A stretch of 32,000 bases of DNA from Pirellula staleyi DSM 6068 (GTDB lineage: Bacteria; Planctomycetota; Planctomycetia; Pirellulales; Pirellulaceae), in contig CP001848.1 of assembly GCA_000025185.1 (NCBI GenBank), positions 1,590,001 through 1,622,000 of the forward strand, given 5' to 3'. The translations under genes were made by a program, and so were the position numbers. The notes under the pieces were generated by a model. That model searched no databases. It saw only the letters and a list, made by a program, of their open reading frames with translations, and was not told the DNA's origin. Positions 12,081 to 30,896 of the stretch are shown piece after piece. How positions within the stretch are numbered: the stretch's first letter is position 1; each line of letters starts with the position of its first letter.

Positions 12081-12240
12081 GGAGAGAGTTTCCTACAGAA
12101 AACGAGACGACAAAAGCGAGCGCGCGAACCGATCGCAAAACGCGATCGATCTAGGGCCGATGTTGTAGCACACCGCCGCCCCCTGCGGCAGATAGTCCCC
12201 CTTCGAGAGCCGATTTTTCGGGCGCTGCTGTTCCGTAGTC

Positions 12241-12390
12241 CCGTAGGTCGGCTACCCCGTAGCCGACAACGAATGCGGCTTCTATTTATTGAGACCGTCG
12301 ATGGGTGAGTGGCAATCAAATCGAGCCCATCATTAATCAGGCGACCATGGAGCGGTTAGACAAGTGTCGGCGAAAGGTGTAGCCGACCTA
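12241..12390. repeat. ~150-bp nested-palindrome repeat element, copy A (diverged centre)
   Basis: The left end cgtaggtcggctac-ccc-gtagccgaca contains a 9-bp hairpin (12247-12267). The right end is gtcggcgaaaggtgtagccgaccta. The terminal 12 nt taggtcggctac are inverted at both ends. The family is shared with 15036-15185 and 16341-16480. Confidence 0.7.
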
Positions 12391-12528: not shown

Positions 12529-12891
12529 GTGATGAAGCCAATTATCGGCGACAAAGTCCGGGTAAAAGCGACCAAGGAACGTGGGGTAGTCGAGAGTCTC
12601 GATGGCCGCAAGATACAGGTGCGCCTTGAAACTGGTTTGCTCACACCCGTTACGGAATTGGAGATCACGAACTACAGCATGGCGGCACGCAAGGCTTGGA
12701 AAAGCATGCCGAACCGACGCGTAGGGCGACCGAATGGAACAACAACAACAGACCGTGTTTCCGTGACGCTCCGAATCGACCGTAAGCTTTGGGAAGCGTT
12801 CAAAAGTGCTGAAGAGCGTGGCGCAGTAGCCGATCGCACGGCAACGATTAACAAATGGATTTCAGAGAAACTACGCCAACTCGAAGCGTAA
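12529..12891 (+). CDS. Small protein with a KOW/SH3-like N-terminus and a ribbon-helix-helix-like C-terminus (putative regulator)
   Basis: 120 aa. The N-terminus is [29 protein letters not shown]. The C-terminal [23 protein letters not shown] has the strand-helix pattern of RHH/CopG proteins. It is the first gene of the cassette. Confidence 0.5.
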
Positions 12892-12920
12892 ACACGGAAT
12901 GCCTCTCGAAAGGAATGGGG

Positions 12921-13649
12921 ATGGCTCAAAATTCAGGAATCGAATGGACGGAGGCGACTTGGAATCCGACTACGGGATGCACGAAGGTGAGTCCCGGATG
13001 TGCACACTGTTATGCCGAACGCATGGCCCATCGACTGCAAGCGATGGGGCAGCCTCGGTATGACCAAGGATTCGATCTCAAACTCCAAGAAGACATAGTC
13101 GAGTTACCTCTCCAGTGGAAGAAGCCTCGTGTCATTTTCGTCAACTCGATGAGCGACCTATTCCACAAAAAGGTGCCGGATGAGTTTATCCGTCGGTGCT
13201 TTCAGGTAATGAAACAAGCCAGCCAGCATAAGTTTCAAGTCTTGACTAAGCGCCCTGAGCGAGTGGTCGAGCTTGGTAACGAATTGGAATGGGGGGATAA
13301 CGTCTGGATGGGAACTAGCGTTGAGAATGCCACATACCTTCGACGCGTTCGCGTCTTGAAACGAGTACCGGCTAAGATTCGCTTCCTTTCCATCGAGCCG
13401 TTATTGGGAGCGATACCACGATTGCCCTTGAAGGGTATTCACTGGGTCATTGTCGGTGGAGAGTCTGGTCCGCAATCACGTCCAATGAAGCCAGACTGGG
13501 TTAGAAATATCCGAGACCAGTGTGTCGCAGGCGAAGTCCCATTCTTCTTCAAGCAGTGGGGGGCATTTGGTGCCGATGGCGTGCACAGGACGAAGAAAGC
13601 GAACGGACGGGAACTGGATGGTCGAATATGGAGTGAAATGCCATCATGA
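12921..13649 (+). CDS. DUF5131 / phage Gp37-Gp68 family three-Cys-motif protein
   Basis: N-terminus [35 protein letters not shown] (Cys-x6-Cys-x2-Cys), then [10 protein letters not shown] and VIVGGESGP motifs, matching my recollection of PF07505. The ORF is open from 12855. ATG12921 (or ATG12915) was preferred because aagga lies just upstream and it avoids overlap with the previous gene. Confidence 0.8.
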
Positions 13650-14989
13650 GTGATGTACCGCTGTTACCGGGGATGGAGCCATTCGTTGCCGCGAAGCCCC
13701 CGAAGGAAAAAGCGAAAAAGAACAACTCTCAGTACCTCTGGATTCCGGGGGAGGATCCGCCTGAACTAGGTCAACACAGTTTGGCGAAGCATCGGATTCT
13801 TCGGAACTATCTCGAGACTTACGTCGCAATTCTTACCTCCAATCGAGTCGTCGAAAAGCTTAATCTTTCGCTGGTGGACGGGTTTTCTGGCGGAGGGGCA
13901 TATCGAAGCCCAGTGACCGGCGAAAGGATTGCCGGCTCACCCATACTGATGTTGGACGCGATGGCATCGGCAGAAGCAAGGGCGAACGAGGGAAAAACGA
14001 AGCCGTTCAAGATCGACGCCGACTTCTACTTCATCGAGCAACAGAAGCCGACGATTGAGTACCTCACGCATGAGATTAGTGAATGCGAATCCGCTCACGG
14101 AAAACACGAACAGATTCATATACTTCCCGGTAGCTTTGCGCAACACATTGATCGGGTCATCAAAGAGATAAAGTCCAAGGGGCGGCGACATCGCGCCATC
14201 TTTCTGCTCGACCAATACGGCTACACCGATGTCACGCTTGTGAACATTAGGAAGATATTTCGCGAGCTTCCTTTCGCCGAAGTAATTCTCACGTTCGCAG
14301 TCGATTGGCTTGCCGATTTCGTGAACGAGTCAGAGAAGTTCGAATCTGCGCTCCGGAATTTGGAACTATCAGACAAGCGGGACTTGCTTGTGCAGATACG
14401 GCAGCAACACGCGGCTGACTGGCGACCGACGATTCAGCACTTGTTGCATCAACATTTCTATGAGAAAAGCGGGGCTGACTGCTATACGCCATTCTTTATC
14501 AACTCGACTGAATCTCACCGAGCCTATTGGCTGCTGCACTTTTCAAAACACGCAACTGCACGAAATGCAATGGTCGATCTACATTGGAGTATGCAGAATC
14601 ACTTTCAGCATTTTGGCAAAGCGGGTTTCGAAATGCTTCTTGGCTACGATCCAAGTAAAATAAATGATTCTAAAATGCTGCCATTCGATTTCGGCTCGGA
14701 TGCAGCGTCACAAACGCACGAATCTCTGCTCATCGGGCTGCCTGAACGTCTTTCAAGGTTTGGGGAAACGATCTCCTTTAAGCACTTCTTTGAGACGGTG
14801 GTCAATGAAACGCCCGCGACGAAACAGATGATTGCAATAGCTGCTCGACAATTGACAAAGGACCATGAAATCGAAGTTATTAGAGCTGATGGTAAGTTGC
14901 GAAAGAATGGTGTAATTATTCATGACGATGATCTGCTTCGTCTGCCTGCAACCAAGTCACTTTTCCTGCCGAGAAAAGATGATAAATAG
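13646..14989 (+). CDS. tcmP: Three-Cys-motif partner protein (TcmP-like)
   Basis: 447 aa, with its start overlapping the DUF5131 stop (ATGA at 13646-13649). The call rests on the conserved partner position next to a DUF5131 protein and an N-terminal region ([15 protein letters not shown]...[13 protein letters not shown]) that fits my recollection of TIGR04474. It has not been verified by HMM. Confidence 0.65.
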
Positions 14990-15035: not shown

Positions 15036-15185
15036 CCGTAGGTCGGTTACCCCGTAGCCGACAACGAATGGAGTTCCCATTTTGAGCGAGCCGAGACTGG
15101 CGATGAATTCGAGCGACGAGCCGAACGGTAGGCTGGCGAGAATGGAGCGCTGAGGGGAATGTCGGCTACGGTGTAGCCGACCTAC
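15036..15185. repeat. ~150-bp nested-palindrome repeat element, copy B (best preserved)
   Basis: The 27-nt terminal inverted repeats cgtaggtcggttaccccgtagccgaca and tgtcggctacggtgtagccgacctacg have 2 mismatches. Each terminus is itself a 9-bp-stem hairpin (gtcggYtac NNN gtagccgac). Confidence 0.75.
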
Positions 15186-15239
15186 GTACTAAGACCTGCG
15201 AACTTGTGAATGTCGCGAGTCGCTTTGCCACTTAAAGGT

Positions 15240-16480: not shown

Positions 16481-18215
16481 TACTTCGTCTAGCAATCAAT
16501 GTCATACTGCAATCTGTAGGCTGCAATCGAGTGTGCCACTGGGCTCTGCCCAGTGAGAAGTGTAGGTGGACTCTACGATTTTAGGCAGATTTCGCCCAAA
16601 ACATCGGTTCCAGCTTCTGCACTGGCGAGACGCCAGTGGCACCCAAAAACACCTGACATTGATCGCTAGACGTCGTACTACTAATTCGCGGCCGATTTAC
16701 GAAGTCAGTCGCTGCGAAAGAGTCAAGAACGGCTCCGGCCGGTGGTTTGGGTTTGCTCGAGGAGGGTCTGAAGCTGTTTGACGATTTCCGGTTTTTGAAG
16801 ATAGAGATTGGTGGTCTCGCCGGGGTCGGTATCGAGATCATAGAGTTGACCGGGCGCTTCGGGAGCACTATCGGGTAGAGCAAACGGTTTCATCAGTCCT
16901 TGCTCGTAGTTGTTGCCGCCCGAGCCGCGATGGTCGATGTATTTCCAGTTGCCGCGGCGAATCGAAAGCGTTCGTGCTCCGCCAAAAGCCTGCGTGAGCA
17001 GATAAGGGCGAATCGGAGCATTAGCTGTCCCTTCGAGGACGGGAAGCATGTTCAAGCTGTCTTCAGCCGCATCGCGATCGAGTTCTGCGCCGGTGATGGC
17101 GGCGACGGTCGCCATGATGTCGGTCAAGCTGGTTAGCTCGGCGCTGGTTGTGTTTGGCTTTACGTGTCCAGGCCAGCGAACGATCAGTGGCAACCGGTGC
17201 CCCCCTTCCCAGGCGTCGCGTTTAACACCGCGCCAAGGTTTCGCGCCGTCGTGCTGGTGATCGGCCCGCATGTGGACAACCGTAGTTGTTTCGGGGCCGT
17301 TGTCGCTCGTCAGGATGACCAGCGTGTTTTCGGCGAGTCCATGCTTGTCGAGAGCCTGCATCAGCTGGCCCACGATGTGATCGAACTGGCAGAGAAAATC
17401 GCCATGAGGTCCAACCTCTGTCTTGCCGCGAAAGTCTTTTCCAGCAAATGATGGAAGGTGTACAGCCTGCGTGGCATGAAAGAGGAACAGCGGTTTCTGA
17501 GGCGAGGTGCGTGCGTGTTCTGCGATGAATTCGAGGCTCTTTTGCAAAAAGATTGTGTCGACCTCTTGCATCTCAAAGTCAGGCGCGATGAGTCCCAGGC
17601 GACAATCTTCCGAATACGGATGACTGGGCAATGTCGAGCGCTTTAGCAAACTGGTGGGAGGAGTTGGGATATGGTCGCCATCGATAAAGGCGTAGAGCCA
17701 ATCGGTCGTAGGACAGCAGGCGGTCCCGAAGAAGTGATCGAAACCATGATCGATAGGGCCCCCTTCGATGCGGCGCGAGAAATCAACCCGGCGCACAGCG
17801 TCGACTCCCGACGTCTTGATCGGCTCGCCACTGCTGTCTCGAAAGGTGAGACCGACATGCCATTTGCCGACAGCAGCAGTGACATAGCCTTGCTGCTGGA
17901 GCATGGCGGGGAGTGTGAGACGTCCCGGCGTGATGAGCGAAGGTCCACCGACTCCGGTGAAGACGGTGCCGCCGCCCGGCACGCGAAACGGCATCTGACC
18001 GGTCATCAGACCGTAACGCGACGGCGTGCAGACGGTCGATGGACTATGGGCGTCGGTGAATCGCATCCCTTCACGCGCGAGGCGATCGATGTTGGGTGTG
18101 GGAACCTTCGCGTCGGGGTTGTAGCAGCGCACATCGCCATAGCCGAGATCGTCGGCAAGTATAAGCACTATATTAGGTACACGGCCAGAGTCGGCAGATT
18201 CAGCTGCATTTCCTA

Positions 18216-19074
18216 GAGCCTGTTATTGACTTATCTGCTTGAAATTGCTGTAGTTAGGGGATGAAACACACGACAGGGAAGTCGTATCCCAGCGACGTAA
18301 CGGATGCGGAGTGGGAATTCCTGCTCCCTTACTTAAGCCTCATGCGCGAGGATGTGCCGCAGCGCGCCTATTCACTGCGCGACCAGTTTAACGCCATGCG
18401 CTACGTGGTGAAAACAGGAATCCAGTGGGACTTCCTGCCGCATGAAATGCCTCCGTGGCGGGCCGTCTATCAACAAATGCGACGCTGGTTCGAAGCGGGA
18501 GTCTTTGAGGAAATTGCGCAAGACCTCAGGCTGATGGTGCGTCTTTTGGAAGGACGTGACGAACAGCCAACCGCTGTGATCATGGATGCTCGAACGCTGC
18601 AATCGACTCCTGAAAGTGGAGGCCGCGCGGGATACGACGGCGCGAAGAAAAAGAAGGGTTCGAAGGCCAATATTGCCGTCGATACACTGGGAAATCTGCT
18701 GGCGGTTTACATCACTGCAGCCAATGAGCAAGACCGCGACCAAGTCGCCATCCTCTCGCAGAGAGTGCAAGAGGTGACGGGCAGCAACGTGGAGATAGCG
18801 TACGTCGATCAAGGCTATACGGGCGCCGCAGCAGCCGAGCAGGCTGAAGCATCCTCGATAAGATTACAAGTTATAAAACATACCGAGACCAAGCGAGGCT
18901 TTGTCCTATTGCCACGCCGCTGGGTTGTTGAGCGCACCTTTGGTTGGCTGAGTCGCTTCCGCCGTCTCGCGCGTGATTATGAGAGACTCACCGTCACGCT
19001 CACCAACTTCCACTGGCTCGCCTTCCTCACCATACTCCTCGCAAAAATCTACAGACAAAGTCAATAACTGGCTC
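18216..19074 (+). mobile_element. IS5-family insertion sequence, copy 1 (859 bp)
   Basis: Terminal inverted repeats GAGCCTGTTATTGACTT and AAGTCAATAACTGGCTC. Single 268-aa DDE transposase ORF. CTAG on both flanks. Confidence 0.9.
18261..19067 (+). CDS. IS5-family DDE transposase (with DUF4096-type N-terminus)
   Basis: 268 aa. YPSDVTDAEWEFLLPYL, GIQWDFLP and PWRAVYQQMRRW at the N-terminus, and VDQGYTG...RWVVERTFGWLSRFRRLARDYE at the C-terminus, typical of IS5/IS4-superfamily transposases. Confidence 0.9.
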   Translation: MKHTTGKSYPSDVTDAEWEFLLPYLSLMREDVPQRAYSLRDQFNAMRYVVKTGIQWDFLPHEMPPWRAVYQQMRRWFEAGVFEEIAQDLRLMVRLLEGRDEQPTAVIMDARTLQSTPESGGRAGYDGAKKKKGSKANIAVDTLGNLLAVYITAANEQDRDQVAILSQRVQEVTGSNVEIAYVDQGYTGAAAAEQAEASSIRLQVIKHTETKRGFVLLPRRWVVERTFGWLSRFRRLARDYERLTVTLTNFHWLAFLTILLAKIYRQSQ

Positions 19075-19272
19075 TAGGGAAAGTGTCGTTGCTGCAGCGA
19101 AGCTGGCAATGATTAGTGTAGCTGATTTGTGTAGTAAACGCATAGAATATTCTCAGGCTGCGAGTAGATAGTCGAAATGCGTATTGGCCGAAGTGACGGT
19201 GAACTTGATTCGACGTCAGTATCGGTGCAGCAAATTTCGCAGTCAACAAAGTCAATATATGGAGAGGCGTAC

Positions 19273-19740
19273 ATGGGCAAAAAGCGGAAGCTAAGACGAC
19301 AGCAACATGGTTAAGCTTGGCACTGGAAGCAAACTGACTCCTGGTACTACACCCTACCTGGTACGAAGAAGCGAATGGCCCTCTTCAACGAACAGGGCGA
19401 ACGAATCAAAGGCCTGGCCAAGAACTTCGAAGCGGAGCAGGCCCTCGCTAGGATCAAGGTCGGGCTGGCGGATAACGGGCCAGGATTTACGCCCGAGGGA
19501 GAATGGATCGTAGCCCGTGTCTGTTCTGACTACATCCAGTATTGCGAACGTGGTGTTCTCAAAGGGACCACCACTTCCGGGCATTTGCTCAGGACGATGT
19601 CTTGGCTAAACGACCTTTGTGCGTACTGTGGCGCATTGCCGCTTTCTCAACTCAAGAAGGGGCACATCACCACTTGGATTGAATCCCATCCGACGTGGCT
19701 AAGTACGGAAACCCACCGAAGTGTACTTTCTATTGTCCTA
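19273..19740 (+). pseudogene. Tyrosine-recombinase (phage-integrase-like) N-terminal fragment with an in-frame stop, truncated by IS
   Basis: ATG19273 is preceded by ggagagg. The reading frame gives MGKKRKLRRQQHG-TAA(19312-19314)-AWHWKQTDSWYYTLPGTKKRMALFNEQGERIKG...HITTWIESHP...RSVLSIV. This resembles the arm-binding plus SAM-like N-terminal domains of integrases. The frame runs into the IS end at 19741 and no catalytic domain is present. Confidence 0.45.
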
Positions 19741-20599
19741 GAGCCAGTTATTGACTTTGTCTGTAGATTTTTGCGAGGAGTATGGTGAGGAAGGCGAGCC
19801 AGTGGAAGTTGGTGAGCGTGACGGTGAGTCTCTCATAATCACGCGCGAGACGGCGGAAGCGACTCAGCCAACCAAAGGTGCGCTCAACAACCCAGCGGCG
19901 TGGCAATAGGACAAAGCCTCGCTTGGTCTCGGTATGTTTTATAACTTGTAATCTTATCGAGGATGCTTCAGCCTGCTCGGCTGCTGCGGCGCCCGTATAG
20001 CCTTGATCGACGTATGCTATCTCCACGTTGCTGCCCGTCACCTCTTGCACTCTCTGCGAGAGGATGGCGACTTGGTCGCGGTCTTGCTCATTGGCTGCAG
20101 TGATGTAAACCGCCAGCAGATTGCCCAGTGTATCGACGGCAATATTGGCCTTCGAACCCTTCTTTTTCTTCGCGCCGTCGTATCCCGCGCGGCCTCCACT
20201 TTCAGGAGTCGATTGCAGCGTCCGCGCATCCATGATCACCGCGGTTGGCTGTTCGTCACGTCCTTCCAAAAGACGCACCATCAGCCTGAGGTCTTGCGCA
20301 ATTTCCTCAAAGACTCCCGCTTCGAACCAGCGTCGCATTTGTTGATAGACGGCCCGCCACGGAGGCATTTCATGCGGCAGGAAGTCCCACTGGATTCCTG
20401 TTTTCACCACGTAGCGCATGGCGTTAAACTGGTCGCGCAGTGAATAGGAACGCTGCGGCGCATCCTCACGCATGAGGCTCAAATAGGGGAGCAGGAATTC
20501 CCACTCCGCATCCGTTACGTCGCTGGGATACGACTTCCCTGTCGTGTGTTTCATCCCCTAACTACAGCAATTTCAAGCAGATAAGTCAATAACAGGCTC
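19741..20599 (-). mobile_element. IS5-family insertion sequence, copy 2 (859 bp)
   Basis: Same inverted repeats and length as copy 1, in opposite orientation. CTAG on both flanks. The transposase differs from copy 1 at 2 aa. Confidence 0.9.
19748..20554 (-). CDS. IS5-family DDE transposase
   Basis: 268 aa, near-identical to the copy at 18261-19067 (V31A, A35S). Confidence 0.9.
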   Translation of the reverse strand: MKHTTGKSYPSDVTDAEWEFLLPYLSLMREDAPQRSYSLRDQFNAMRYVVKTGIQWDFLPHEMPPWRAVYQQMRRWFEAGVFEEIAQDLRLMVRLLEGRDEQPTAVIMDARTLQSTPESGGRAGYDGAKKKKGSKANIAVDTLGNLLAVYITAANEQDRDQVAILSQRVQEVTGSNVEIAYVDQGYTGAAAAEQAEASSIRLQVIKHTETKRGFVLLPRRWVVERTFGWLSRFRRLARDYERLTVTLTNFHWLAFLTILLAKIYRQSQ

Positions 20600-20613
20600 T
20601 AGGGAGATTTGTT

Positions 20614-21324
20614 GTGATTCCGGCCGAGAATAGCTCGTGTGTTGTACTGGTCCCGGTTGGCTCACAGATTGAACCTGCATGTGAAGCAGGCCTCAAAGAC
20701 CTAGAAAAACGGGGTTATCCAGTTTGGCGAGTAAGGGGATATGCAGCGATCGATCAGGGTCGCAATCAGATGGCGACTGATGCGATTGCGCAAGGATTCA
20801 AAGAAACGATGTGGATCGATTCAGACATTGCCTTTGACCCCAATGCAGTTGACCGCCTTCGAACGCATCAGCTGCCGATCACATGCGGCGTTTATCCGAA
20901 AAAGGGAAAGCGAGAACTTGCGATTCATGTACTGCCAGGCACAGAGAAGATCGTTTTTGGCAAAGATGCGAGCTTGACAGAGATCAAGTATGCCGCCACT
21001 GGATTCTTGCATGTCCGTCGTGAAGTTTACTTAAAAGTCCAGGCCGATCTCAAGCTCCCTCTTTGCAACACTCGATGGAAGAACCCGATGGTTCCATTCT
21101 TTATGCCGATGGTGCAACCAGAGTCCTGGGGAAGTTGGTACTTGGCCGAAGACTATGCTTTTTCAGAGCGAGCAAGGCGATGCGGCTACCAGGTTTGGGC
21201 TGATACTTCGATCCGGCTGGGACACATCGGCAGCTATAGCTACAGCTGGGAAGATGCTGGAAGTGATACGAAGCGATTCGCTAGTTACACTTACCATCTC
21301 ACGGACCAAAAAAATGAGTCCTAG
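20614..21324 (+). CDS. GT-A-fold (family-2-like) glycosyltransferase
   Basis: 236 aa. The order VVLVPVGSQIEP, then AIDQGRNQMA, then MWIDSDIAFDP (a DxD-type motif), then YLAEDYAFSERARRCGYQVWADTSIRLGHIG matches the layout of small GT-A glycosyltransferases. GTG start with gggag 8 nt upstream. Confidence 0.6.
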   Translation: MIPAENSSCVVLVPVGSQIEPACEAGLKDLEKRGYPVWRVRGYAAIDQGRNQMATDAIAQGFKETMWIDSDIAFDPNAVDRLRTHQLPITCGVYPKKGKRELAIHVLPGTEKIVFGKDASLTEIKYAATGFLHVRREVYLKVQADLKLPLCNTRWKNPMVPFFMPMVQPESWGSWYLAEDYAFSERARRCGYQVWADTSIRLGHIGSYSYSWEDAGSDTKRFASYTYHLTDQKNES

Positions 21325-21398
21325 TCGTGGCAAATGGAATTGTCGGGATGACGCACTGACCCAACCGTCAAGAGATAACCGCTGTAGAGAATAGAGCA

Positions 21399-22211
21399 AT
21401 GATTAACACTTATTGGTGGCAAGGAGGCGGTGGCTCAAGAAATTTTGGTGACAAACTTGGACCGGCTCTGATAGAGCAACTTAGCGGTAAGCGGGTTTGC
21501 CACTCCACGATCGAAGACAGCGACATCCTTGCTATAGGAAGCGTTCTAGAACCCTGGTTTTGGCCGAAAGACTCCTGGCGCAAGTACAGTGGAGCAATTT
21601 GGGGAGTGGGGCGCATGTTTGGGCAAGTTCCATTCGATCTTCCCGCTGCAAATTCTATCGCAGTTCGAGGGCTACTCTCCAAAAGTCGGCTGGCTAATTC
21701 AGTTAACCGAGAGGTGGTCACTGGCGATCCTGGACTACTCTGTCCTCTGCTGCATCACGGTTTGACAGGGCCAGCCCGCAAACTCGGCGTTTGGCCACAC
21801 TGGAGTGAACTATCGCACCCGGCGTTCAAAACACTCGCGGCAAGTTCCCCAGACATCACGTTCATTGATCCCTGCGGTGATATTCGGGAAACACTAGACC
21901 GAGCCAGCAAATGTGAATTCATCGCCTCGTCGTCACTACATGGCTTGATTACGGCGGATGCCTTGGGGATTCCCAGGTGCTGGCTTCGCCTCAACACCGG
22001 AAATGAAGATCGGGCAGGTATGCCCGAGTTCAAGTACCGCGACTATTTTTCTGTCTATTCATCCCCCCCTCCTGATCCATTGCTCCTCTCCTCGACCACT
22101 CGCTTAGCCGAAATCGTCCAAAATGCCTCTTCGGTGGATCGTAACGAAGTGTGTCTCATCCAGACGACGCTGGCAAAGTGCTTTCCCTTTGGGAAAGCCC
22201 CAACAATCTAG
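21399..22211 (+). CDS. Polysaccharide pyruvyl transferase family protein
   Basis: 270 aa. N-terminal NFGDKLGPALIEQLSG and C-terminal SSSLHGLITADALGIP resemble the two hallmark segments of PS_pyruv_trans (CsaB/WcaK-like) proteins. Confidence 0.6.
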   Translation: MINTYWWQGGGGSRNFGDKLGPALIEQLSGKRVCHSTIEDSDILAIGSVLEPWFWPKDSWRKYSGAIWGVGRMFGQVPFDLPAANSIAVRGLLSKSRLANSVNREVVTGDPGLLCPLLHHGLTGPARKLGVWPHWSELSHPAFKTLAASSPDITFIDPCGDIRETLDRASKCEFIASSSLHGLITADALGIPRCWLRLNTGNEDRAGMPEFKYRDYFSVYSSPPPDPLLLSSTTRLAEIVQNASSVDRNEVCLIQTTLAKCFPFGKAPTI

Positions 22212-22274
22212 CGATTCAACTCAACAAGAGTGTGCTCTCGTTTTCATCTCGATGATTGACTACTCAAGACCGCT

Positions 22275-23531
22275 TTGGTGGTTCACATGCATGCATTGTT
22301 TTTGTTGAAGAACAGCAGGGCCAACGATGAAGAGTTGCGTTTTACCCTGAGGTCTGTTGCACTAAATTGGCCATGGATTACGAAGGTCTGGATTTTTGGA
22401 GACCGTCCGCATTTCATGGCAGATTGTCCAGAGCGTATCGAACATGTTCCTCATGAGTACATAGCGAGAGTCAGTGGTTTTCGGACACCGGTACGCAACA
22501 TGTTTCTGATGACCTACCTCGCATCACTTCTTCCAGAGCTTTCGGCAGAATTCATGCTCTGCACCGACGACACGGCAATACTTCATCCAATGAGCTTGGA
22601 AGATGCCAGTATCGTGAGGTACATCGAGGATCTAAAGGAAGTGAAATCACGCGGTACTGGGCTATGGAAAGATGCCCTATGGAGAACGCACGACACGCTG
22701 AAGCGGTTAGGGTATCCGTCACTCAACTTTGAAGCCCACGTTCCCTCCGTATTCAGCAAGAAGCAAGTTATCGAAGCCTATTTCGACTTGCGCGATTTTG
22801 TGAGCGAGGATCGGTTCTATGGCCTGCTCGTCAAGACAGCGGTCTATTCACACACCATGAAGAATCGCAAGTTTCCGATAGTTCGACTCAAAGATGAGCA
22901 GAGTGTCGCTGGATTCCATCATCGCCCAGCCAGCTACGAGGCGATCGAATTGGCTAGCCGAGGTAAAAAATTCCTCAACTTCGACGATGATGCGTTCGAC
23001 CAGGCCATGGTGCAGTACTTGACGACGAGGTTTCCTGAACCGTCGTGTTTCGAGAACCCACTTGCTCCACCTCCGGCGATTTCACCCCGACAAGAGAGCT
23101 TCGAGGGAATCGCAACGTCACCCTGGACAGGCGCATTCCCACGCAGGATTGTGGTCGCCTGCCGTAATTTTCCGGCACTACCGATTCTCCTGAAACAGTT
23201 GAAATTGCTCCCGGCAGAGTCTCTACTTCACTGTGTTGGATTGCCACAAACGGTTGCTGCTGAGCTGGATGGCTCTCGCGTGAAGATATCGAACGACCTA
23301 GCGACAGTGATCGAAGCTACGAAGACCAGCAGCATCGCAATTGCTTGGGACTGCAAGCCGATGGAGGAGCGTGCAATTCAAATGAAAGTACCTCTACTTT
23401 CACTGAACGACGCTACTTTCACACTCGGTGGATCTGGGGACACAACACCAGGCACGCGTCGAGAATTCGCATCTGTATCATCGCCTGCCATGATCATCGA
23501 TCGACTCCGCCATCTATGGGAGGGAATTTAG
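22275..23531 (+). CDS. Stealth-CR2-like capsule/glycan phosphotransferase-like protein
   Basis: 418 aa. NDEELRFTLRSVALNWPWITKVWIFGDRPHFM...HVPHE...LLPELSAEFMLCTDDTAIL parallels the Stealth CR2 pattern (ELRYSLRS..APW..I.IVTD..P.WL..H..IF...LP.FNS..IE...GLSE.FLY.NDD). ATG22287 is an alternative start. Confidence 0.5.
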   Translation: MVVHMHALFLLKNSRANDEELRFTLRSVALNWPWITKVWIFGDRPHFMADCPERIEHVPHEYIARVSGFRTPVRNMFLMTYLASLLPELSAEFMLCTDDTAILHPMSLEDASIVRYIEDLKEVKSRGTGLWKDALWRTHDTLKRLGYPSLNFEAHVPSVFSKKQVIEAYFDLRDFVSEDRFYGLLVKTAVYSHTMKNRKFPIVRLKDEQSVAGFHHRPASYEAIELASRGKKFLNFDDDAFDQAMVQYLTTRFPEPSCFENPLAPPPAISPRQESFEGIATSPWTGAFPRRIVVACRNFPALPILLKQLKLLPAESLLHCVGLPQTVAAELDGSRVKISNDLATVIEATKTSSIAIAWDCKPMEERAIQMKVPLLSLNDATFTLGGSGDTTPGTRREFASVSSPAMIIDRLRHLWEGI

Positions 23532-23576
23532 ACAGCCTTGCACCGTTCCTTTTCTCCCATTTTGGGGGAGAAAACA

Positions 23577-23604
23577 TTGACTGCTCGTTTGGGGAGGGTA
23601 TATT
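23577..23604 (+). promoter_or_regulatory. Candidate sigma70-like promoter TTGACT-16 nt-TATATT upstream of the giant gene
   Basis: ttgact is at 23577-23582 and tatatt at 23599-23604, about 87 nt upstream of ATG23691 in the 159-nt intergenic gap. Confidence 0.35.
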
Positions 23605-23690
23605 CACCCCCGCTATGACCACTACCATCGGTAAAAATGGTGTGGCCTCGGTGAAAACTAGCTGCCTCCCGAACACCAGGACTTTGCACC

Positions 23691-26600
23691 ATGCCCATTC
23701 GGCACCTCCTTCGTCTCCTGAACATGGTTCGTAGCGTTTCAGATTCCAAGCGAAAGGAAGCGATCAAGCGGTTTCGTCGCCTGCGACATGAAGCACTTGA
23801 AGTCCGAGCGGTGATGGATGGCGAACTTGCTGAACTGCTGACAAGCGGCTCTCCGTTCACTGCCCCGCAATCGCAACTTGAATACTCATCGACTCCCCCC
23901 CAAGGCTACATGTCCGAGTCCGACAGTTATGGTGCGGAAGGCGAAGGGAGTGGAGGAGGAAGCGGTTCAGGAGGAAGTAGCTCCTCGGGTGCGGCAATCT
24001 GGGTCTCAGTAGACAACTCGCACATCTACGAGCAGGGGAGTCCTTCAACTGCGCTCTTTACGTTTACTCGCGACAATACCGCTGGTGCGATCACCGTCAA
24101 TTTCACACTGGGCGGTAGTGCCACTTCTGGAAGCGATTTCAGTGCAGCCACTCCCCATTCGGTGACAATCCCGAACGGCTCTACCTCAGCCACTTACTCG
24201 ATAAGCTCCATTAACGATTCTGTGGCGAACGAGGGAAATGAAACGGCCAATTTATCGCTGACTCCCCCGAGTGGATATTACGCAATTACATCCTCTGCGT
24301 CGGTCACGATCGTTGACGACGACTTTTATGGATCGGGCGGAGGCAGCGGCGCAGGTAGTGGCAGCGGCGCAGGTAGTGGCAGCGGCGCAGGTAGTGGCAG
24401 TGGTTCAGGCGGTGCCTCCGGCAGTGGTTCAGGCGGTGCCTCCGGCAGTGGTTCAGGCGGTGCCTCCGGCAGTGGTTCAGGCGGTGCCTCCGGCAGTGGT
24501 TCAGGCGGTGCCTCCGGCAGTGGTTCAGGCGGTGCCTCCGGCAGTGGTTCAGGCGGTGCCTCCGGCAGTGGTTCAGGCGGTGCCTCCGGCAGTGGTTCAG
24601 GCGGTCTCATTTGGCTGGATGTTGATTCACTTACCATCCACGAAAGCGGCGGCAACAGCACTGCTGTGTTTACATTTGAACGAGACACCACCGATGGTGA
24701 TGTCACAATCAATTTCACCTTCGGTGGAAGTGCAGCCATCGGTTCTGACTATACCCCTTCGATTGGCTCACCATACTCCGTCACAATCCAAGATGGTCAA
24801 ACAACCGCGACCTTGTCAGTCACAGCGATTGACGACTTGCTGGTAGAAGCCTCTGAAACGGTATCAGTATCCTTCACGACCCCAGAGAACTACACCTCAC
24901 TCAACAGCAGCGAATCAGTTCTCGTCAGTGACGACGACTATGGAACTTCAGGCGGAGGAAGTGGCAGTGGCAGCAGTAGCGGGGCGGGTGGTGCTGAAAC
25001 TACGGTGTCGGTGACTTCATTACATACAAGTGTTGCTGAATCATCCGAAACAAATGTAATATTTACATTTACGAGAACTGGCCCGCTCGACCAATCGCTA
25101 TCTGTCAATTACACACTAGATTTTTCTCAAGCTAATCTTGGCGAAGACTACATTCTCACCGAAGGTACTGTAGGCGAGGTTACCTTTTTAGCCCAAGAAT
25201 CAAGTGCAATAGTTTCATTTTCCATAATCGACGATGTGATTAGTGAATATGACGAATCCATCGATATCGCAATAGAGGAACAGCCTGAGCTATATGAAAT
25301 AGGATCAGATTCATATGCATCCGCTCTGATTGAGGATGACGACGAAATCGATTTCTCCTTTGCAGGAATTCAGGTTGACGAGGGAAGTGGTCGAGTGAGC
25401 ATGTTGATCGAAATTGCGTCACCAACTCAACGTGAGCACCAACTCCAATTATCCGTTATTGGCGGAACCGCGACTTCAGGAAGTGACTACGAGGTCGTAA
25501 CACAAACAAATCAGGTCATTAACATAACTGAAAACACGGTGCTGATTGGTGTCGAAATAAATGTCAAGGACAACACCTCAGACAATCCTGATCGCACAGT
25601 TGATCTCAGGGCTGAGATTGATGGAGTTGTGAGAACAGCAGTTTTGACAATCGTCGACAATGACGACGCCACTTTAACTCTTATGCATGATGACAATGTC
25701 GTATTTGAGGGAGATTATCTGCGGCTGACAGGGCAAGTTTCGTATGCAGGTGTGATGCCTGAATTCGTTGAATTTTACCTTGGCAGCAGTCAGCAAAGTA
25801 TCGGCACGTCTACAGTATCTCAGGATGGCACATTTGAACACTATCTCAGAATCGAAGACGACGAGCCAGACGACCAGCCGAATGGCGTTGGAGTTGACTC
25901 AATTGAAATTAGGGCCGTTGCATCTCTAGGCGGGAACGAAAGCATTGAAAGCACGGTGTCTGCCGAGGTTTCAAACCTTCCTCCAGAGATCGATAATGTT
26001 TTTATTTATAACACGAACGATCTCTCCATACCAATTGACACGATTGGCCAAGATGGTGGCGAGATAACCCTATACCTAGACTTGAAGGATCGCGGTGAAA
26101 TCGACACTCATCTGCTTAACATTGACTGGGGAGACGGGTCGTCTCCCACAATCATCGAAGTCACCGCAGGGGAATACGCCATCCAACATGTATATGCCGC
26201 ACTTCCAGTTGAGCTCGAAGGGCAATCGCATGGCTACGACATTGTTATAACAGCGGTGGACGACGACGGTGGCGAGGGAACGGCAAGCACTTATCTTGTA
26301 GCGAATGCCGGCGACTCGGAAGATGTAGAACTCTGGATCACTGCACCAACTACTGGAAATGTTGCGAGCGAAGTACGCAGAAAATCGGCAGTTTTTACCG
26401 TCCACAGAGATAGCGGCGACGGCCAATTATTGGTTGACTTGGCTCGGTCAAGCTCGGCTACAGCTGACAGACTAGATTATTTTGTATCCGTCTCTGGAAA
26501 TGCCCGCTATGCGCAATCCCCAGACGGAAGACTCTTGGTCACGTTTCCAGATGGAGTAGATACGGTAACTATCACCTTGCTCCCGAGACTCGACAACCTA

Positions 26601-28193
26601 GATGAAGGAACAGAAACAATTGGGTTTGAAATAGCCGCCTTGCGGGGACAGACCTACACCACAAGACAAGGCCAGGAGTCGGTTGAGATCGAGCTTGAGG
26701 ACGGGCATTATGTCGTAACGTTTCTAGAGCCTCCAACAACAACGTACCAAGAAACTCGCGAACGAAACGACGTATTCGGTGAGTCCAATCGCGAAATCAC
26801 AGTAAAGGCTCGCTTGTGGCGAGACCTTTCTGAAAGCTTCTTTTTTCAGACTGTTAGCGTACCGATATCCTATACCGGGAGCTCTGCAACACCGACGGAT
26901 GACTTTATAGCAATGGACTCGATGCTTTTCAGCCCTGCGCGTGAGCCAATTGCTACGCTCAGAATTGGGATAATCGACGATACCATAATTGAAATCGATG
27001 AGGTCATTAACATTGGAATCGGAGCGACAGGCGGATTTACCCAAGAAGCTGGCACTCAATCCTATAGCTACACAATCATTGACGATGACGAAAGAACATT
27101 AAGCGTCTCCCTAGAAACAGACACTCGCACAGAGAATCATATAAATCTGACTGGGCTCCCCTCTGCCGAATTTGGGAAAAACCTCGTCAAAGTCGAAATA
27201 AGCATAGGCGAAATTGCCGCAGAAGATTTTCTTGTGAATGTCTCATTAAAAGGAATCGCAAGTTATGGACAGGACTTCACAATTTCAAGATACAGGATTT
27301 CGCAGCGATGGACAATTCTAGACCCCTTTAACTCCAGTGTTCGCGATGCCAGATCGATAGAAGACTTTCAGTTCTCTGACCACACAGACGTTTTTGTTAA
27401 ATCTGACGGACACGGTCAGCTCAAAATATTTAAGGGAGAGATGAGTGCCATTCTGTGGATTAAAGTGCTTGATGACACTGTTCTTGAGCCCTCTGAGAAT
27501 ATTAAGATATCCGTTACACCCGAAGTAACAGAAGAGTTCGTCAACCATAAAGCAGAGGACACCTTACACCTCCATAGCGATGACGAACTACCACCAAACA
27601 CCGATGGCAATGAATGGGAACTTGTGTTTGAGCCTAGCTCCGTTACGCTTTACCCAACCTACCTGGCCGACGACAATACACCTCAGGAATGGCTTTATGA
27701 AGATGGTGGCTGGTATAGAATCAAACATGTGATCGAAAAAGTGAGGGCGAGCTCCACCCCCATAGTCACTAATTATGGTGAGTCCCTAACCAGCAAAGGC
27801 AGTTGGTCAATGGGGTTCTCGGCTAGTCGGTCGTTTGAATTCAGCATTGGCATAGCCAATGAGATAACAAAAAAGATCGGCCTTCAAGGCTCTTATACAT
27901 TCGGGCAACAGACTTCACAAGAATTTTCAGTTGAGCGAAATTACGATCCTGATGGTGATGATGTAATTGGCGAGAGTGGAGATGATGTTCGCTGGGCTGC
28001 TTACAGGATCGTATCTCAGTCATTTATTTACCGAGATTTTATTCCAGATCCACTTCACGACCGCTTTGCAGGCTATCCCCCATCCGGCGCTGAAGCAACT
28101 CAGGACATTACCTCATCGAGTATGCTTGACAGTTTTTACCGAAAGGACGGAGTCGACGTCCAGGTGTACAAGCAGACGCGATCACAGGATTAA
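23691..28193 (+). CDS. Giant (1500 aa) multi-Calx-beta repeat extracellular protein with a PKD-like module, Gly/Ser linkers and an unassigned C-terminal domain
   Basis: At least 7 modules carry the Calx-beta signature (e.g. FTFTRDNTAGAITVNFTLGGSATSGSDF...SISSINDSVANEGNETANLSL; VIGGTATSGSDYEV). One PKD-like module is present (NIDWGDGSS...VITAVDDDGGEG). There are three Gly/Ser linkers, and the N-terminus is a basic RFRRLRHEALEVRAVM motif. Confidence 0.85.
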   Translation: MPIRHLLRLLNMVRSVSDSKRKEAIKRFRRLRHEALEVRAVMDGELAELLTSGSPFTAPQSQLEYSSTPPQGYMSESDSYGAEGEGSGGGSGSGGSSSSGAAIWVSVDNSHIYEQGSPSTALFTFTRDNTAGAITVNFTLGGSATSGSDFSAATPHSVTIPNGSTSATYSISSINDSVANEGNETANLSLTPPSGYYAITSSASVTIVDDDFYGSGGGSGAGSGSGAGSGSGAGSGSGSGGASGSGSGGASGSGSGGASGSGSGGASGSGSGGASGSGSGGASGSGSGGASGSGSGGASGSGSGGLIWLDVDSLTIHESGGNSTAVFTFERDTTDGDVTINFTFGGSAAIGSDYTPSIGSPYSVTIQDGQTTATLSVTAIDDLLVEASETVSVSFTTPENYTSLNSSESVLVSDDDYGTSGGGSGSGSSSGAGGAETTVSVTSLHTSVAESSETNVIFTFTRTGPLDQSLSVNYTLDFSQANLGEDYILTEGTVGEVTFLAQESSAIVSFSIIDDVISEYDESIDIAIEEQPELYEIGSDSYASALIEDDDEIDFSFAGIQVDEGSGRVSMLIEIASPTQREHQLQLSVIGGTATSGSDYEVVTQTNQVINITENTVLIGVEINVKDNTSDNPDRTVDLRAEIDGVVRTAVLTIVDNDDATLTLMHDDNVVFEGDYLRLTGQVSYAGVMPEFVEFYLGSSQQSIGTSTVSQDGTFEHYLRIEDDEPDDQPNGVGVDSIEIRAVASLGGNESIESTVSAEVSNLPPEIDNVFIYNTNDLSIPIDTIGQDGGEITLYLDLKDRGEIDTHLLNIDWGDGSSPTIIEVTAGEYAIQHVYAALPVELEGQSHGYDIVITAVDDDGGEGTASTYLVANAGDSEDVELWITAPTTGNVASEVRRKSAVFTVHRDSGDGQLLVDLARSSSATADRLDYFVSVSGNARYAQSPDGRLLVTFPDGVDTVTITLLPRLDNLDEGTETIGFEIAALRGQTYTTRQGQESVEIELEDGHYVVTFLEPPTTTYQETRERNDVFGESNREITVKARLWRDLSESFFFQTVSVPISYTGSSATPTDDFIAMDSMLFSPAREPIATLRIGIIDDTIIEIDEVINIGIGATGGFTQEAGTQSYSYTIIDDDERTLSVSLETDTRTENHINLTGLPSAEFGKNLVKVEISIGEIAAEDFLVNVSLKGIASYGQDFTISRYRISQRWTILDPFNSSVRDARSIEDFQFSDHTDVFVKSDGHGQLKIFKGEMSAILWIKVLDDTVLEPSENIKISVTPEVTEEFVNHKAEDTLHLHSDDELPPNTDGNEWELVFEPSSVTLYPTYLADDNTPQEWLYEDGGWYRIKHVIEKVRASSTPIVTNYGESLTSKGSWSMGFSASRSFEFSIGIANEITKKIGLQGSYTFGQQTSQEFSVERNYDPDGDDVIGESGDDVRWAAYRIVSQSFIYRDFIPDPLHDRFAGYPPSGAEATQDITSSSMLDSFYRKDGVDVQVYKQTRSQD
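24342..24605 (+). repeat. Perfect in-frame tandem repeats: 3 x 18 bp followed by 8.75 x 24 bp
   Basis: ggcagcggcgcaggtagt occurs 3 times (24342-24395, encoding GSGAGS). ggcagtggttcaggcggtgcctcc occurs 8 times plus an 18-nt partial unit (24396-24605, encoding GSGSGGAS). I could see no substitutions between units. Confidence 0.95.
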
Positions 28194-28196
28194 CGC

Positions 28197-29000
28197 ATGC
28201 AATATTCTACCCGCTCCTTGTTCAGCGTTTTATCTGTTCTATCTGTACTTTTTTGTTGTTTCCACTACTACTGGACCAAACAGACTCAACAACCGCAAGT
28301 TGACGGTTTCTTCGTTTCTTCACAGATGGCGGATGTTGACCTTTTGATCGATGATGAGCTAATTGCTAGTAGTGATCGACCCTTTGAGTTGTTTGTCAAG
28401 AATAGCGAACTCCTTCGAATTGCAGGGCCCAATGCTAAACTTACGACAGACAATCCAGGTTTCTGGATCAATCGGTATGGAATTTTGTGCAGCAGAGTTG
28501 TTAGGCCAGATGCTAGTAGCCCTGTTATTTGGTTCCGTAATCGAGCCGCAATTGAGACGACCCCAATTGGATTTGGAAATGCAATGTCAATTGAAGGATA
28601 TACAGAAGCCAGACAAGACACAAAGTATGGAGACAGGAGCCGCGCAGTTGTTTGGCACGCTTCAGGGAAAGAGAAGCACTCCACGATTGCAGCCCAGCTT
28701 GACAAAGATCTGCTCTCACTAGAATGTCGTGGCATACCCGGGGGATCTAGGCACGTACAGTATCGTTGCATAGTCACGGTGCGGTACGTTCGGTTTGATG
28801 ATTTCCGCCAGGTACTGTTTGAGGGGGATACAGAGGTAATTGAAGGGAATTGCTGGCTTACGCTTGACATCTCAGAGCTACTGGAGAAGTACCCTGTCAG
28901 TCATGGAGTTGTCGTAGCACATGTCGACATGGCTTTAAAGGAGAAGGGTAGCAACAAGAAGATTATAGAATTAGAATCTCCTATGGTTCGAGTTGAATAG
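28197..29000 (+). CDS. Membrane-anchored hypothetical protein, tightly linked partner of the giant protein
   Basis: 267 aa. The ATG lies 3 nt after the giant gene's TAA. N-terminal hydrophobic anchor LFSVLSVLSVLFCCF. No recognisable family. Confidence 0.55.
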   Translation: MQYSTRSLFSVLSVLSVLFCCFHYYWTKQTQQPQVDGFFVSSQMADVDLLIDDELIASSDRPFELFVKNSELLRIAGPNAKLTTDNPGFWINRYGILCSRVVRPDASSPVIWFRNRAAIETTPIGFGNAMSIEGYTEARQDTKYGDRSRAVVWHASGKEKHSTIAAQLDKDLLSLECRGIPGGSRHVQYRCIVTVRYVRFDDFRQVLFEGDTEVIEGNCWLTLDISELLEKYPVSHGVVVAHVDMALKEKGSNKKIIELESPMVRVE

Positions 29001-29107
29001 CTTGTTGCAACTCAGTTATATCTATCCCAGCTTAAGAGATGTATTCCTTACATACGTTTGCCCTGGACCGAAATTGTGCCGAATTAGTCTTCGAAAGTAG
29101 ACTTTCG

Positions 29108-29842
29108 ATGGATCGAAGGTATGGCTGGATTCTGTCGGATCAGCAGTGGGAGTTGGGTTGTCCCCTGCCACCGAAGCACCAGTCATCAGCAGGTGACGGC
29201 AGGCCGCGAACCGATATTTTTGGTGTTTCGTGGTATTTTGCCCTTGCATAGTGGGCCCGTTTAAAGGACCTTTCCAGGCAATATTCTTCACCAAGTACCT
29301 GCTGGCGACGACTTGCTCGCTGGGAAAATATTGACGGTGTCCGCAAGTTTGTGGCGCACCGTCATCGAGGCCCTCGATAAGCGAGGCCTCTTGGGTTTAG
29401 AGGAACTGCCTCTGTACTGTAGGTTGGGTCCTTCAAAAGCAAGCCGCGAGGGTTGGCAAAACCAAACGTGGAAAAACTGCGATGGCCACGGCGTTGGCAG
29501 ATGGCCAAGGAATTCCTTTGGCTTACTCTGCCTCGATCGCCTCGCCAGCCGAAGTCACACTTGCCGAAAGCATACTTTAGAGGATAACGCGACCAACAGG
29601 TCAAACCCTGCCACTGATTGCCGGTCGGGCCTGCGATTGCGATCCATTGCGTCAGCGTTTGGCCTAGCAAAAGTCTGGGGATTTTAACGCCTCATCGCCG
29701 CAGACGCATCAAGCTTCCCACGAAAGATGGTCGCAAGCTTCGCCGCTACCGCCATCGCTGGAAAAATTAAGCGTGCTTTTGGATTGCGCTTATCCGCCTC
29801 AAAAAGGTTGTGAAATGGGTTCTAGGCAACTACAGTTCGCTA
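29108..29842 (+). pseudogene. Decayed IS5-superfamily transposase relic with multiple frameshifts and stops
   Basis: Fragments lie in three frames: ILSDQQWELGCPLPP...GDGRPRTDIFGVSWY (N-terminus), WRTVIEALDKRGLLGLEE, GKTKRGKTAMATALADGQGIPLAYSASIASPAEVTLAESIL-stop, and TPHRRRRIKLPTKDGRKLRRYRHRWKN-stop. Together they follow the canonical order of DUF4096/DDE_Tnp_1 transposases. Confidence 0.65.
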
Positions 29843-30701
29843 GAGCCAGTTATTGACTTTGTCTGTAGATTTTTGCGAGGAGTATGGTGAGGAAGGCGAG
29901 CCAGTGGAAGTTGGTGAGCGTGACGGTGAGTCTCTCATAATCACGCGCGAGACGGCGGAAGCGACTCAGCCAACCAAACGTGCGCTCAACAACCCAGCGG
30001 CGTGGCAATAGGACAAAACCTCGCTTGCCCTCGGTATGTTTTATAACTTGTAATCTTATCGAGGATGCTTCAGCCTGCTCGGCTGCTGCGGCGCCCGTAT
30101 AGCCTTGATCGACGTATGCTATCTCCACGTTGCTGCCCGTCACCTCTTGCACTCTCTGCGAGAGGATGGCGACCTGGTCTCGGTCTTGCTCATTGGCTGC
30201 AGTGATGTAAACCGCCAGCAGATTTCCCAGTGTATCCACGGCAATATTGGCCTTCGAACTTTTCTTTTTCTTCGCGCCATCATACCCCGCGCGGCCTCCA
30301 CTTTCAGGAGTCGATTGCAGCGTCCGCGCATCCATGATCACCGCGGTTGGCTGTTCGTCACGTCCTTCCAAAAGACGCACCATCAGCCTGAGGTCTTGCG
30401 CAATTTCCTCAAAGACTCCCGCTTCGAACCAGCGTCGCATTTGTTGATAGACGGCCCGCCACGGAGGCATTTCATGCGGCAGGAAGTCCCACTGGATTCC
30501 TGTTTTCACCACGTAGCGCATGGCGTTAAACTGGTCGCGCAGTGAATAGGAACGCTGCGGCGCATCCTCACGCATGAGGCTCAAATAGGGGAGCAGGAAT
30601 TCCCACTCCGCATCCGTTACGTCGCTGGGATACGACTTCCCTGTCGTGTGTTTCATCCCCTAACTACAGCAATTTCAAGCAGATAAGTCAATAACAGGCT
30701 C
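29843..30701 (-). mobile_element. IS5-family insertion sequence, copy 3 (859 bp)
   Basis: Same inverted repeats and length, same orientation as copy 2, CTAG on both flanks. The transposase differs from copy 2 at 2 aa (G133S, T209G). Confidence 0.9.
29850..30656 (-). CDS. IS5-family DDE transposase
   Basis: 268 aa, near-identical to the other two copies. Confidence 0.9.
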   Translation of the reverse strand: MKHTTGKSYPSDVTDAEWEFLLPYLSLMREDAPQRSYSLRDQFNAMRYVVKTGIQWDFLPHEMPPWRAVYQQMRRWFEAGVFEEIAQDLRLMVRLLEGRDEQPTAVIMDARTLQSTPESGGRAGYDGAKKKKSSKANIAVDTLGNLLAVYITAANEQDRDQVAILSQRVQEVTGSNVEIAYVDQGYTGAAAAEQAEASSIRLQVIKHTEGKRGFVLLPRRWVVERTFGWLSRFRRLARDYERLTVTLTNFHWLAFLTILLAKIYRQSQ

Positions 30702-30896
30702 TAGAACAAAACGACGAACCAACGTTGTCTTACCGCTACCTAGGTCACCGACGACAACGATCGGATGCGGGACCACGTCGCGCGCATTTAGCAACTGATC
30801 CAGCGTGTCTAATGCGTCGGGTAATTCACCTTCGTGTTGCAGCTCAAGTGGCGTGCACGGAGTATCGCGGAACACTTGGCGATACTCCCTTTCCAC
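30702..30896 (-). pseudogene. 5' fragment of a P-loop NTPase gene truncated by IS copy 3
   Basis: (GTG)EREYRQVFRDTPCTPLELQHEGELPDALDTLDQLLNARDVVPHPIVVVGDLGSGKTTLVRRFV contains a Walker A motif (GDLGSGKT). The frame runs straight into the IS inverted repeat. The remainder of the gene is not on the other side of the IS. Confidence 0.55.

Follow-up and report, generated by a model that had tools for sequence, protein, structure and literature searches.

We analyzed a window of 32,000 nucleotides from Pirellula staleyi DSM 6068 (contig CP001848.1, positions 1,590,001 to 1,622,000), in which two copies of an insertion sequence (IS) enclose a block of genes for putative glycan enzymes and a giant protein. 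A repeat search identified three copies of one 865-bp element in the window, here called IS1, IS2 and IS3. The two copies that enclose the block, IS2 and IS3, had been placed in the same orientation in an initial annotation of the sequence, and they are indeed direct repeats with 98.5% identity (13 differences). The inner segment between them (20603-29839, 9237 bp) contains five genes on the plus strand and the relic of another IS, and the outer flanks of this 11-kb unit are convergent 5' gene fragments. The third copy, IS1, is located to the left of the unit, in a sulfatase gene. The features are as follows, with coordinates given as positions in the window.

Features of the locus

16723-19143, minus strand: sulfatase gene split by IS1 (Pfam Sulfatase, E 3e-50; start codon at 19141-19143)
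18139-18162, minus strand: ILADDLGY codons, the putative left junction (attL) of an integrative island, placed by homology to the element in L030, L033 and L035
18213-19077, transposase on the plus strand: IS1, 865 bp from CTAG to CTAG (repeat search, alignment and end-motif search)
19218-19246, minus strand: promoter-like TTGACT-N17-GATACT facing the sulfatase gene, at a position conserved in most related elements (alignment)
19273-19737, plus strand: Int1 pseudogene, 155 N-terminal codons of a tyrosine recombinase of ~400 aa, cut by IS2
19738-20602, minus strand: IS2, 865 bp, near the family consensus, with flanks mismatched to each other
20614-21324, plus strand: putative glycosyltransferase (weakly GT-A-like; Glyco_transf_21 below threshold; DSD motif)
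21399-22211, plus strand: polysaccharide pyruvyl-transferase-like gene (PF04230, 34.4 bits, cutoff 25.3)
22275-23531, plus strand: Stealth-like gene of the hexose-1-phosphotransferase family (CR2, 41.7 bits, cutoff 39.4)
23691-28193, plus strand: gene for a Calx-beta protein of 1500 aa (Calx-beta, 97 bits; Gly/Ser linkers)
28197-29000, plus strand: gene for a partner protein of 267 aa, an orphan with an N-terminal hydrophobic anchor
29108-29839, plus strand: decayed DUF4096-type IS relic with several stops, its C-terminal end cut at IS3
29840-30704, minus strand: IS3, 865 bp, with 12 private, clustered and mostly synonymous changes and with flanks mismatched to each other
30705-30896, minus strand: 5' fragment of a gene for a P-loop nucleoside triphosphatase (NTPase), with a GTG start and at most 64 codons, ending at IS3

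The 268-aa transposase open reading frame (ORF) is intact in IS1, IS2 and IS3, and matches the Pfam families DUF4096 and DDE_Tnp_1, both above threshold, as well as the NCBIfam model NF033580, "IS5 family transposase", with 194 bits (cutoff 110). The termini are inverted repeats of about 20 bp with one mismatch. Both hallmarks of the IS5 family were thus identified, namely a DDE transposase and terminal inverted repeats combined with a short target duplication. Two further copies of the element from unrelated assemblies, L002 and L023, were used as outside references, and CTAG was found on both sides of all five copies. Single-ORF elements of the IS5 group typically have such a 4-bp CTAG repeat (PMC9241763). 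Since CTAG is identical at every copy, the target-site duplication is uninformative on whether IS2 and IS3 have moved jointly. In L023 (GCA_002483025.1, positions 9920-9952), the same IS is nested in what looks like the right terminus of a diverged and older copy of the element (…CTCGCACAAATCTACCGACAAAGTCA, followed by CTAG…).

By comparison with the two outside references, IS2 is nearly identical to the consensus, while 10 private changes were found in IS1, all at positions 117-381 of the element, and 12 in IS3, at positions 420-726. One derived site, at position 588, is common to IS2 and IS3. In both copies these changes are clustered (P about 1e-4 for IS1 and 4e-5 for IS3 by permutation), and the changed codons are synonymous in 8 of 10 cases in IS1 and in 10 of 12 cases in IS3, as compared to an expected 23% (P 2.5e-4 and 1.9e-5, respectively). 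Such clustered and mostly synonymous differences argue that IS2 and IS3 are distinct functional lineages rather than a fresh duplicate pair, and they perhaps represent patches of gene conversion between IS copies. The perfectly identical stretch between IS2 and IS3 is 419 bp long, which would be ample for a homologous deletion of the block.

If IS1 is removed and one CTAG is left, an open sulfatase gene is obtained that codes for 519 aa and begins with MRLLHKSATLIIASFAAATTLSLGNAAESADSGRVPNIVLILADDLGYGD... (MRLLHK...ILADDLGYGD). The insertion site is a CTAG within the signal-peptide codons, and the flanks rejoin in frame to an uninterrupted gene, which suggests that IS1 is a simple and probably recent insertion. 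An inversion between IS1 and IS2, considered as a source of the mismatched flanks at the unit, was ruled out because the flanks of IS1 rejoin perfectly.

The outer flanks of the unit had been described in the initial annotation as 5' fragments of two unrelated, inward-pointing genes that are not restored when joined. The description is accurate for both fragments, of which the integrase fragment contains 155 codons and the NTPase fragment at most 64 codons, and the failure to join extends to every IS-adjacent flank in the window. With the unit removed, integrase codon 155 runs directly into the NTPase fragment in reverse complement, and neither ORF continues. We also joined both fragments, in either orientation, to all six flanks that adjoin an IS, and neither protein was continued at any of them. 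The expected continuation of the integrase (...VVLAAFN...) was not present in any of these six flanks, nor did tblastn searches of the window with longer homologs identify any further integrase sequence. The Walker A motif GSGKT of the NTPase fragment occupies positions 30726-30740, and the sequence breaks off 7 codons past it, ending in GSGKTTLVRRFV.

The start of the integrase gene had been set at ATG 19375, but this codon is internal, since the homologs begin 34 codons upstream of it, which places the true start at 19273. The fragment corresponds to ~40% of the gene, with about 245 codons missing past codon 155, and contains an in-frame TAA at codon 14 (19312-19314), where all relatives have Ser. 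A profile search identified 369 relatives, of which those with a length of ~380-400 aa carry the catalytic domain PF00589 above threshold (32-39 bits, cutoff 27.1). The fragment in the window lacks this domain, and is predicted to be a member of the tyrosine recombinase family by descent, now reduced to a dead fragment. A search with one full-length integrase yielded 1033 matches, and the best 120 of these are planctomycete proteins with 64-85% identity. No member of the integrase family was found in a scan of viral contigs, and sequence and profile searches of the PDB with the N-terminal part of the integrase were uninformative. Many of the relatives are truncated or frameshifted near residues 125-140 (P0002, P0009, P0011, P0012, P0014; L003, positions 6001-6399), including a second P. 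staleyi paralog of 136 aa, Psta_3723, and one copy in a metagenome-assembled genome is followed by an IS66 fragment and the end of the contig. The truncations near residues 125-140 may be due to recurrent decay, to a slippery site or to assembly breaks at a multi-copy element.

The five genes and the IS relic inside the unit were recovered as initially described, with the GT-A assignment of the first gene as the tentative part. This gene scores 20.3 bits against Glyco_transf_21, below the cutoff of 21.7, and the other support for the label is the invariant DSD motif alone. A single-sequence AlphaFold model of the protein was unusable (predicted local distance difference test score of 33), and sequence and profile searches of the PDB were uninformative. 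Its GTG start codon is located 11 nt from the end of IS2, so that the native upstream region of the gene is absent. A promoter scan detected no comparable sigma-70-like site before this gene; the best such match of the region, TTGACT-16-TATATT (10/12), is located at 23577-23604, just upstream of the gene for the giant protein. Given this promoter scan and the position of the start codon, the first three genes of the block (glycosyltransferase, pyruvyl-transferase and Stealth-like genes) may depend on transcription out of IS2.

In the Stealth-like protein, only CR2 of the Pfam regions CR1 to CR4 was detected, and weak matches in the PDB were to GNPTAB and CpsY (E 1e-4 to 0.06). This gene for a sugar-1-phosphate transferase of the Stealth type is located immediately upstream of the gene for the giant Calx-beta protein, in which the linkers between the Calx-beta domains, (GSGSGGAS)n, are encoded by a 24-nt tandem repeat (24329-24629). 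The arrangement recalls the phosphoglycosylation of Ser/Gly-rich linkers, which we take to be a conceivable, if purely analogical, role for the pair. For the ~350 residues at the C terminus of the giant protein (27138-28190), there is no relative in Pfam, the PDB or the metagenomes. Polar and hydrophobic residues alternate in a stretch of this region (SKGSWSMGFSASRSFEFSIGIANEI...), and its sequence suggests a beta-rich domain.

The five genes do not seem to have a common history. In the metagenomes, 17 relatives of the glycosyltransferase were identified at 46-73% identity, and only one of these, in L006, is also accompanied by a pyruvyl-transferase gene, in the same order and with 73% and 60% identity for the two proteins. 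In L006, an IS3-type transposase ORF, rather than a Stealth gene, comes after the pair. The sole relative of the Stealth-like protein, in L001, is 53% identical and located in an unrelated context without synteny. The glycosyltransferase, the pyruvyl-transferase and the partner protein are each the only member of their own 90%-identity cluster. The IS relic is below the threshold for DUF4096 (E 3e-6) and is unrelated to the active IS. The initial annotation had treated the block as one module of glycan enzymes and a giant protein; since only the glycosyltransferase and pyruvyl-transferase pair recurs elsewhere, the Stealth gene recurs alone, and the giant protein and its partner are orphans, it should rather be viewed as a mosaic. 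The GC content at third codon positions (GC3) is 0.44-0.55 in the five genes and 0.58-0.69 in the neighboring genes and both flank fragments. By composition the enclosed genes are foreign, and their origins are mixed. The collections searched, which for the P. staleyi genome were confined to the window, yielded neither another copy nor a relative of the complete block, and thus no relative supports or refutes the view that the block is ancestral to this locus.

A proposed family of integrative islands in sulfatase genes

The integrase gene is divergent from a sulfatase gene, at a distance of 70-190 bp, in all seven independent loci that were read (the window, L003, L024, L025, L026, L029 and L030). 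The adjoining sulfatases are not orthologs, with only 25-32% identity, which rules out that the arrangement represents conserved synteny. Despite the lack of orthology, an LLH(K/R)I(T/A)T block is common to their signal peptides. One integrase, P0244, was found on several contigs, and we compared its left arms in L030, L033 and L035. The arm is 100% identical from the start of the integrase through the promoter-like block, the start codon of the sulfatase gene and the signal peptide to PNIVLILADD. The first mismatch is located 373-379 nt out, inside GAT GA(C/T) CTC GG(C/A). Beyond this junction the three sulfatases differ, with an overall identity of 44% between those of L030 and L033. Identical arms and a divergence that begins between the codons for ADD and LGYG indicate that the same element has entered three different sulfatase genes. 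As read from these arms, the element would supply a new promoter and a new 5' end, and would thereby keep the sulfatase gene that it hits open.

Downstream of Int1, all five other elements that were compared have an ORF of ~100-134 aa in reverse orientation, weakly similar to excisionase-type helix-turn-helix proteins (hereafter Xis-like), and four of these elements (L024, L026, L029 and L030) contain a second integrase, Int2, with ~65% identity to Int1. The cargo beyond this core of integrase and Xis-like genes varies between elements. In the window, there was no trace of Int1 past codon 155, of Int2 or of the Xis-like ORF.

The island boundary was observed directly only for the element in L030, L033 and L035, and we place it in the window by means of the homologous signal-peptide and promoter blocks. 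The junction motif is located at 18139-18162, which implies that IS1, the Int1 fragment, IS2, the block, IS3 and the NTPase fragment are all inside the island. The DNA from this point rightward to the integrase gene would then represent the signal peptide, start codon and promoter brought in by the element. As the core of the attachment site, a block of 22 bp within the signal-peptide codons (19116-19137) was also considered, and was rejected because the boundary is located ~190 nt deeper in the sulfatase gene; after mapping of the boundary, this block is seen to be element-borne sequence. Neither a second island junction (attR), for which the search covered the window, nor an empty site was seen, and the right end of the island lies beyond the window. 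The position of IS1 and of the unit within an island that ends in a sulfatase gene had not been noted in the initial annotation, nor had the nonsense codon in the integrase gene and the mosaic nature of the block.

Taken together, we consider it probable that these elements form an undescribed planctomycete family, with a tyrosine integrase gene at the left end, that recombines into the ADDLGYG codons at the catalytic site of sulfatase genes, and that brings its own promoter, start codon and signal peptide, with the block being the cargo of, or a later import into, a dead member of the family. The ADDLGYG motif is common to the more than one hundred sulfatase paralogs in these genomes, which implies that one element has many alternative sites, of which three have been seen. 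Nothing relevant on a sulfatase-targeting planctomycete element was found in the open literature searched, and the family appears to be undescribed. The integrase family, with more than 1000 close relatives in the Planctomycetes, appears to use the active-site codons of sulfatases as landing pads and to repair the gene in the process. If true, this would be a new choice of target for genomic islands, namely a motif that recurs across the members of a paralog family, as opposed to one gene or a tRNA. It would also provide a handle on the acquisition of cargo by planctomycete genomes, and might yield recombinases whose target is defined and repeated in nature.

History of the IS-bounded block

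On balance, we lean toward the explanation that the 11-kb unit, bounded by IS copies, is a remnant within an integrative island that is now dead, and not a transposon that has inserted here. The island would have integrated into the sulfatase gene at the ADDLGYG codons, after which its integrase would have decayed through the nonsense codon. Copies of the 865-bp IS5-family element, with CTAG as the target, would next have invaded the island, and an IS-associated deletion or rearrangement would have eliminated, on one side, the core of the island and, on the other, the 3' part of the NTPase gene, with the outcome that two direct IS copies were left around foreign genes. Each break would most likely have been caused by recombination between IS copies in the same orientation, or by intramolecular transposition, with deletion of the intervening DNA. 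The loss on the left side would have included the 3' part of the integrase gene, Int2, the Xis-like gene and further sequence, and the loss on the right side the 3' part of the NTPase gene and the end of the IS relic. As the sequence now stands, integrase codon 155 is connected through IS2 to a site 11 nt ahead of the first gene of the block, and IS3 connects the truncated, older IS relic to codon ~64 of the NTPase gene.

Independent insertions followed by IS-mediated recombination or deletion had been suggested from the outset. An IS-associated deletion or rearrangement is the most economical explanation because the remainder of Int1 and the Xis-like ORF are always present in the related elements, and Int2 usually so, and all of these are absent from the window. 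Several points weigh against it. There is no direct evidence that the IS caused the breaks, and the IS may have entered junctions that were already degraded. The CTAG is the same at all five copies and neither links nor unlinks IS2 and IS3, and their shared derived single nucleotide polymorphism (SNP) at position 588 is a weak hint that they are sister copies. The missing gene halves might survive beside IS copies outside the window, in which case an inversion or translocation would have to be assumed instead of a deletion. Finally, the island in the window is assigned to the family by homology of the left arm only, with its right end beyond the window.

Another way to obtain direct copies with non-matching outer flanks is the import of the unit, as a circle of one IS and the block or as an IS-block-IS segment that recombined with a resident IS between the integrase and NTPase fragments, in the style of pseudo-compound transposons and translocatable units. 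The low GC3 values of the block (0.44-0.55, as compared to 0.62 and 0.69 in the outer flank fragments), the direct orientation and shared derived SNP of IS2 and IS3, and the location of the first gene only 11 nt from an IS end, as if excised by the IS, all agree with such an import. We nevertheless regard it as unlikely, because the collections searched contained neither another copy nor a relative of the unit, and because the inner flank of IS3 is a truncated relic, so that a further break is needed anyway; the SNP pattern of IS2 and IS3 is compatible with an import and does not point to one. Somewhat less likely still is that the integrase gene, the NTPase gene and the relic were truncated earlier without any IS, and that IS2 and IS3 only landed at CTAG sites on the resulting junctions. 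The nonsense mutation in the integrase gene is independent of the IS and shows that the gene was decaying anyway, truncations or frameshifts also occur in many homologs elsewhere, and CTAG, which is always targeted, is common. Two coincidental hits on existing breakpoints would be needed, whereas IS1 sits in continuous sequence.

A transposition of IS2, the block and IS3 into the site in a single step had been doubted in the initial annotation, and with good reason. The inverted repeats and transposase ORFs are intact in IS2 as well as in IS3, and CTAG is present on both sides of the unit, but it flanks every other copy as well and hence provides no evidence of a shared duplication, while IS2 and IS3 differ at 13 sites. 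Removal of the unit joins convergent 5' fragments and restores neither gene, and no continuation was found at any of the six IS-adjacent flanks, which makes such an event very improbable. An assembly artifact is hardly credible: repeats of 865 bp can mislead assemblers into false joins, but the private SNP patterns in all three copies show that these were resolved as distinct, and the source record is a single contig of 6.2 Mb.

Under the favored reading of a remnant inside a dead island, the block could be lost by homologous recombination or, in principle, mobilized. The intact ends, the ORFs and the 419-bp identity support the earlier statement, that the segment is ready to be mobilized or lost in one piece, as a structural possibility only, and neither another copy nor a circle or a relative of the unit was found in the collections searched.

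Comparison with known systems and other features of the window

As an IS structure, the block is ordinary. It resembles a composite transposon in having two IS with intact outer ends and at least one intact transposase gene, and departs from one in that the outer flanks are not continuous once the unit is removed and that the same unit was not found at another site or in another genome in the collections. Compound transposons bounded by IS5-family elements are known, such as Tn903 with IS903, and like these the P. staleyi unit consists of two complete IS with intact ends and transposase genes around unrelated cargo. Unlike them, it has non-contiguous outer flanks, no demonstrable unit-specific duplication, direct IS copies that have diverged by 1.5%, and a mosaic cargo that includes the relic of another IS. 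Pseudo-compound transposons and translocatable units are formed by IS26, by a mechanism that belongs to the transposases of the IS6/IS26 family. Direct IS copies bound the segment in these structures too, the outer flanks need not match, and there is no unit-wide duplication. In contrast, the P. staleyi element encodes a DDE enzyme of the IS5 family, for which the same route would need homologous recombination by the host. The block can thus be viewed as a routine example of how IS carve up and immobilize acquired DNA, and it cautions against calling every IS-cargo-IS arrangement a transposon.

A similar type of decay is that mediated by IS in Mycobacterium shottsii, with single-ORF IS5-family elements, CTAG repeats, IS copies at truncations and pseudogenes around them, but in P. 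staleyi the decay is local to an acquired island and not part of a genome-wide reduction (PMC9241763). The closest analog of the sulfatase-targeting family is the dusA-specific islands, in which a tyrosine integrase is located at the edge, integration takes place in the 5' end of the gene and a substitute 5' end is supplied (PMC4482086). The sulfatase elements differ from these in that they target a motif of a very large paralog family, with one element found in three genes, instead of one housekeeping gene, in that they also replace the promoter and the signal peptide, and in that most of them contain two tandem, paralogous integrases with ~65% identity.

Elsewhere in the window, two ORFs at 10884-12308 overlap almost fully on opposite strands, one of 398 aa on the minus strand and one of 468 aa on the plus strand, the latter with no match in Pfam. 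GC-rich palindromes of the repetitive extragenic palindromic (REP) type (GTCGGCTAC...GTAGCCGAC) were found at 12241-12287, ~12365-12390, 15036-15082 and ~15160-15190. These paired copies bracket a two-gene cassette of lower GC content, which consists of a DUF5131 gene (12855-13649) and a gene for a GMT-wHTH protein of 447 aa (13646-14989), and the bracketed pair may be a small inserted cassette.

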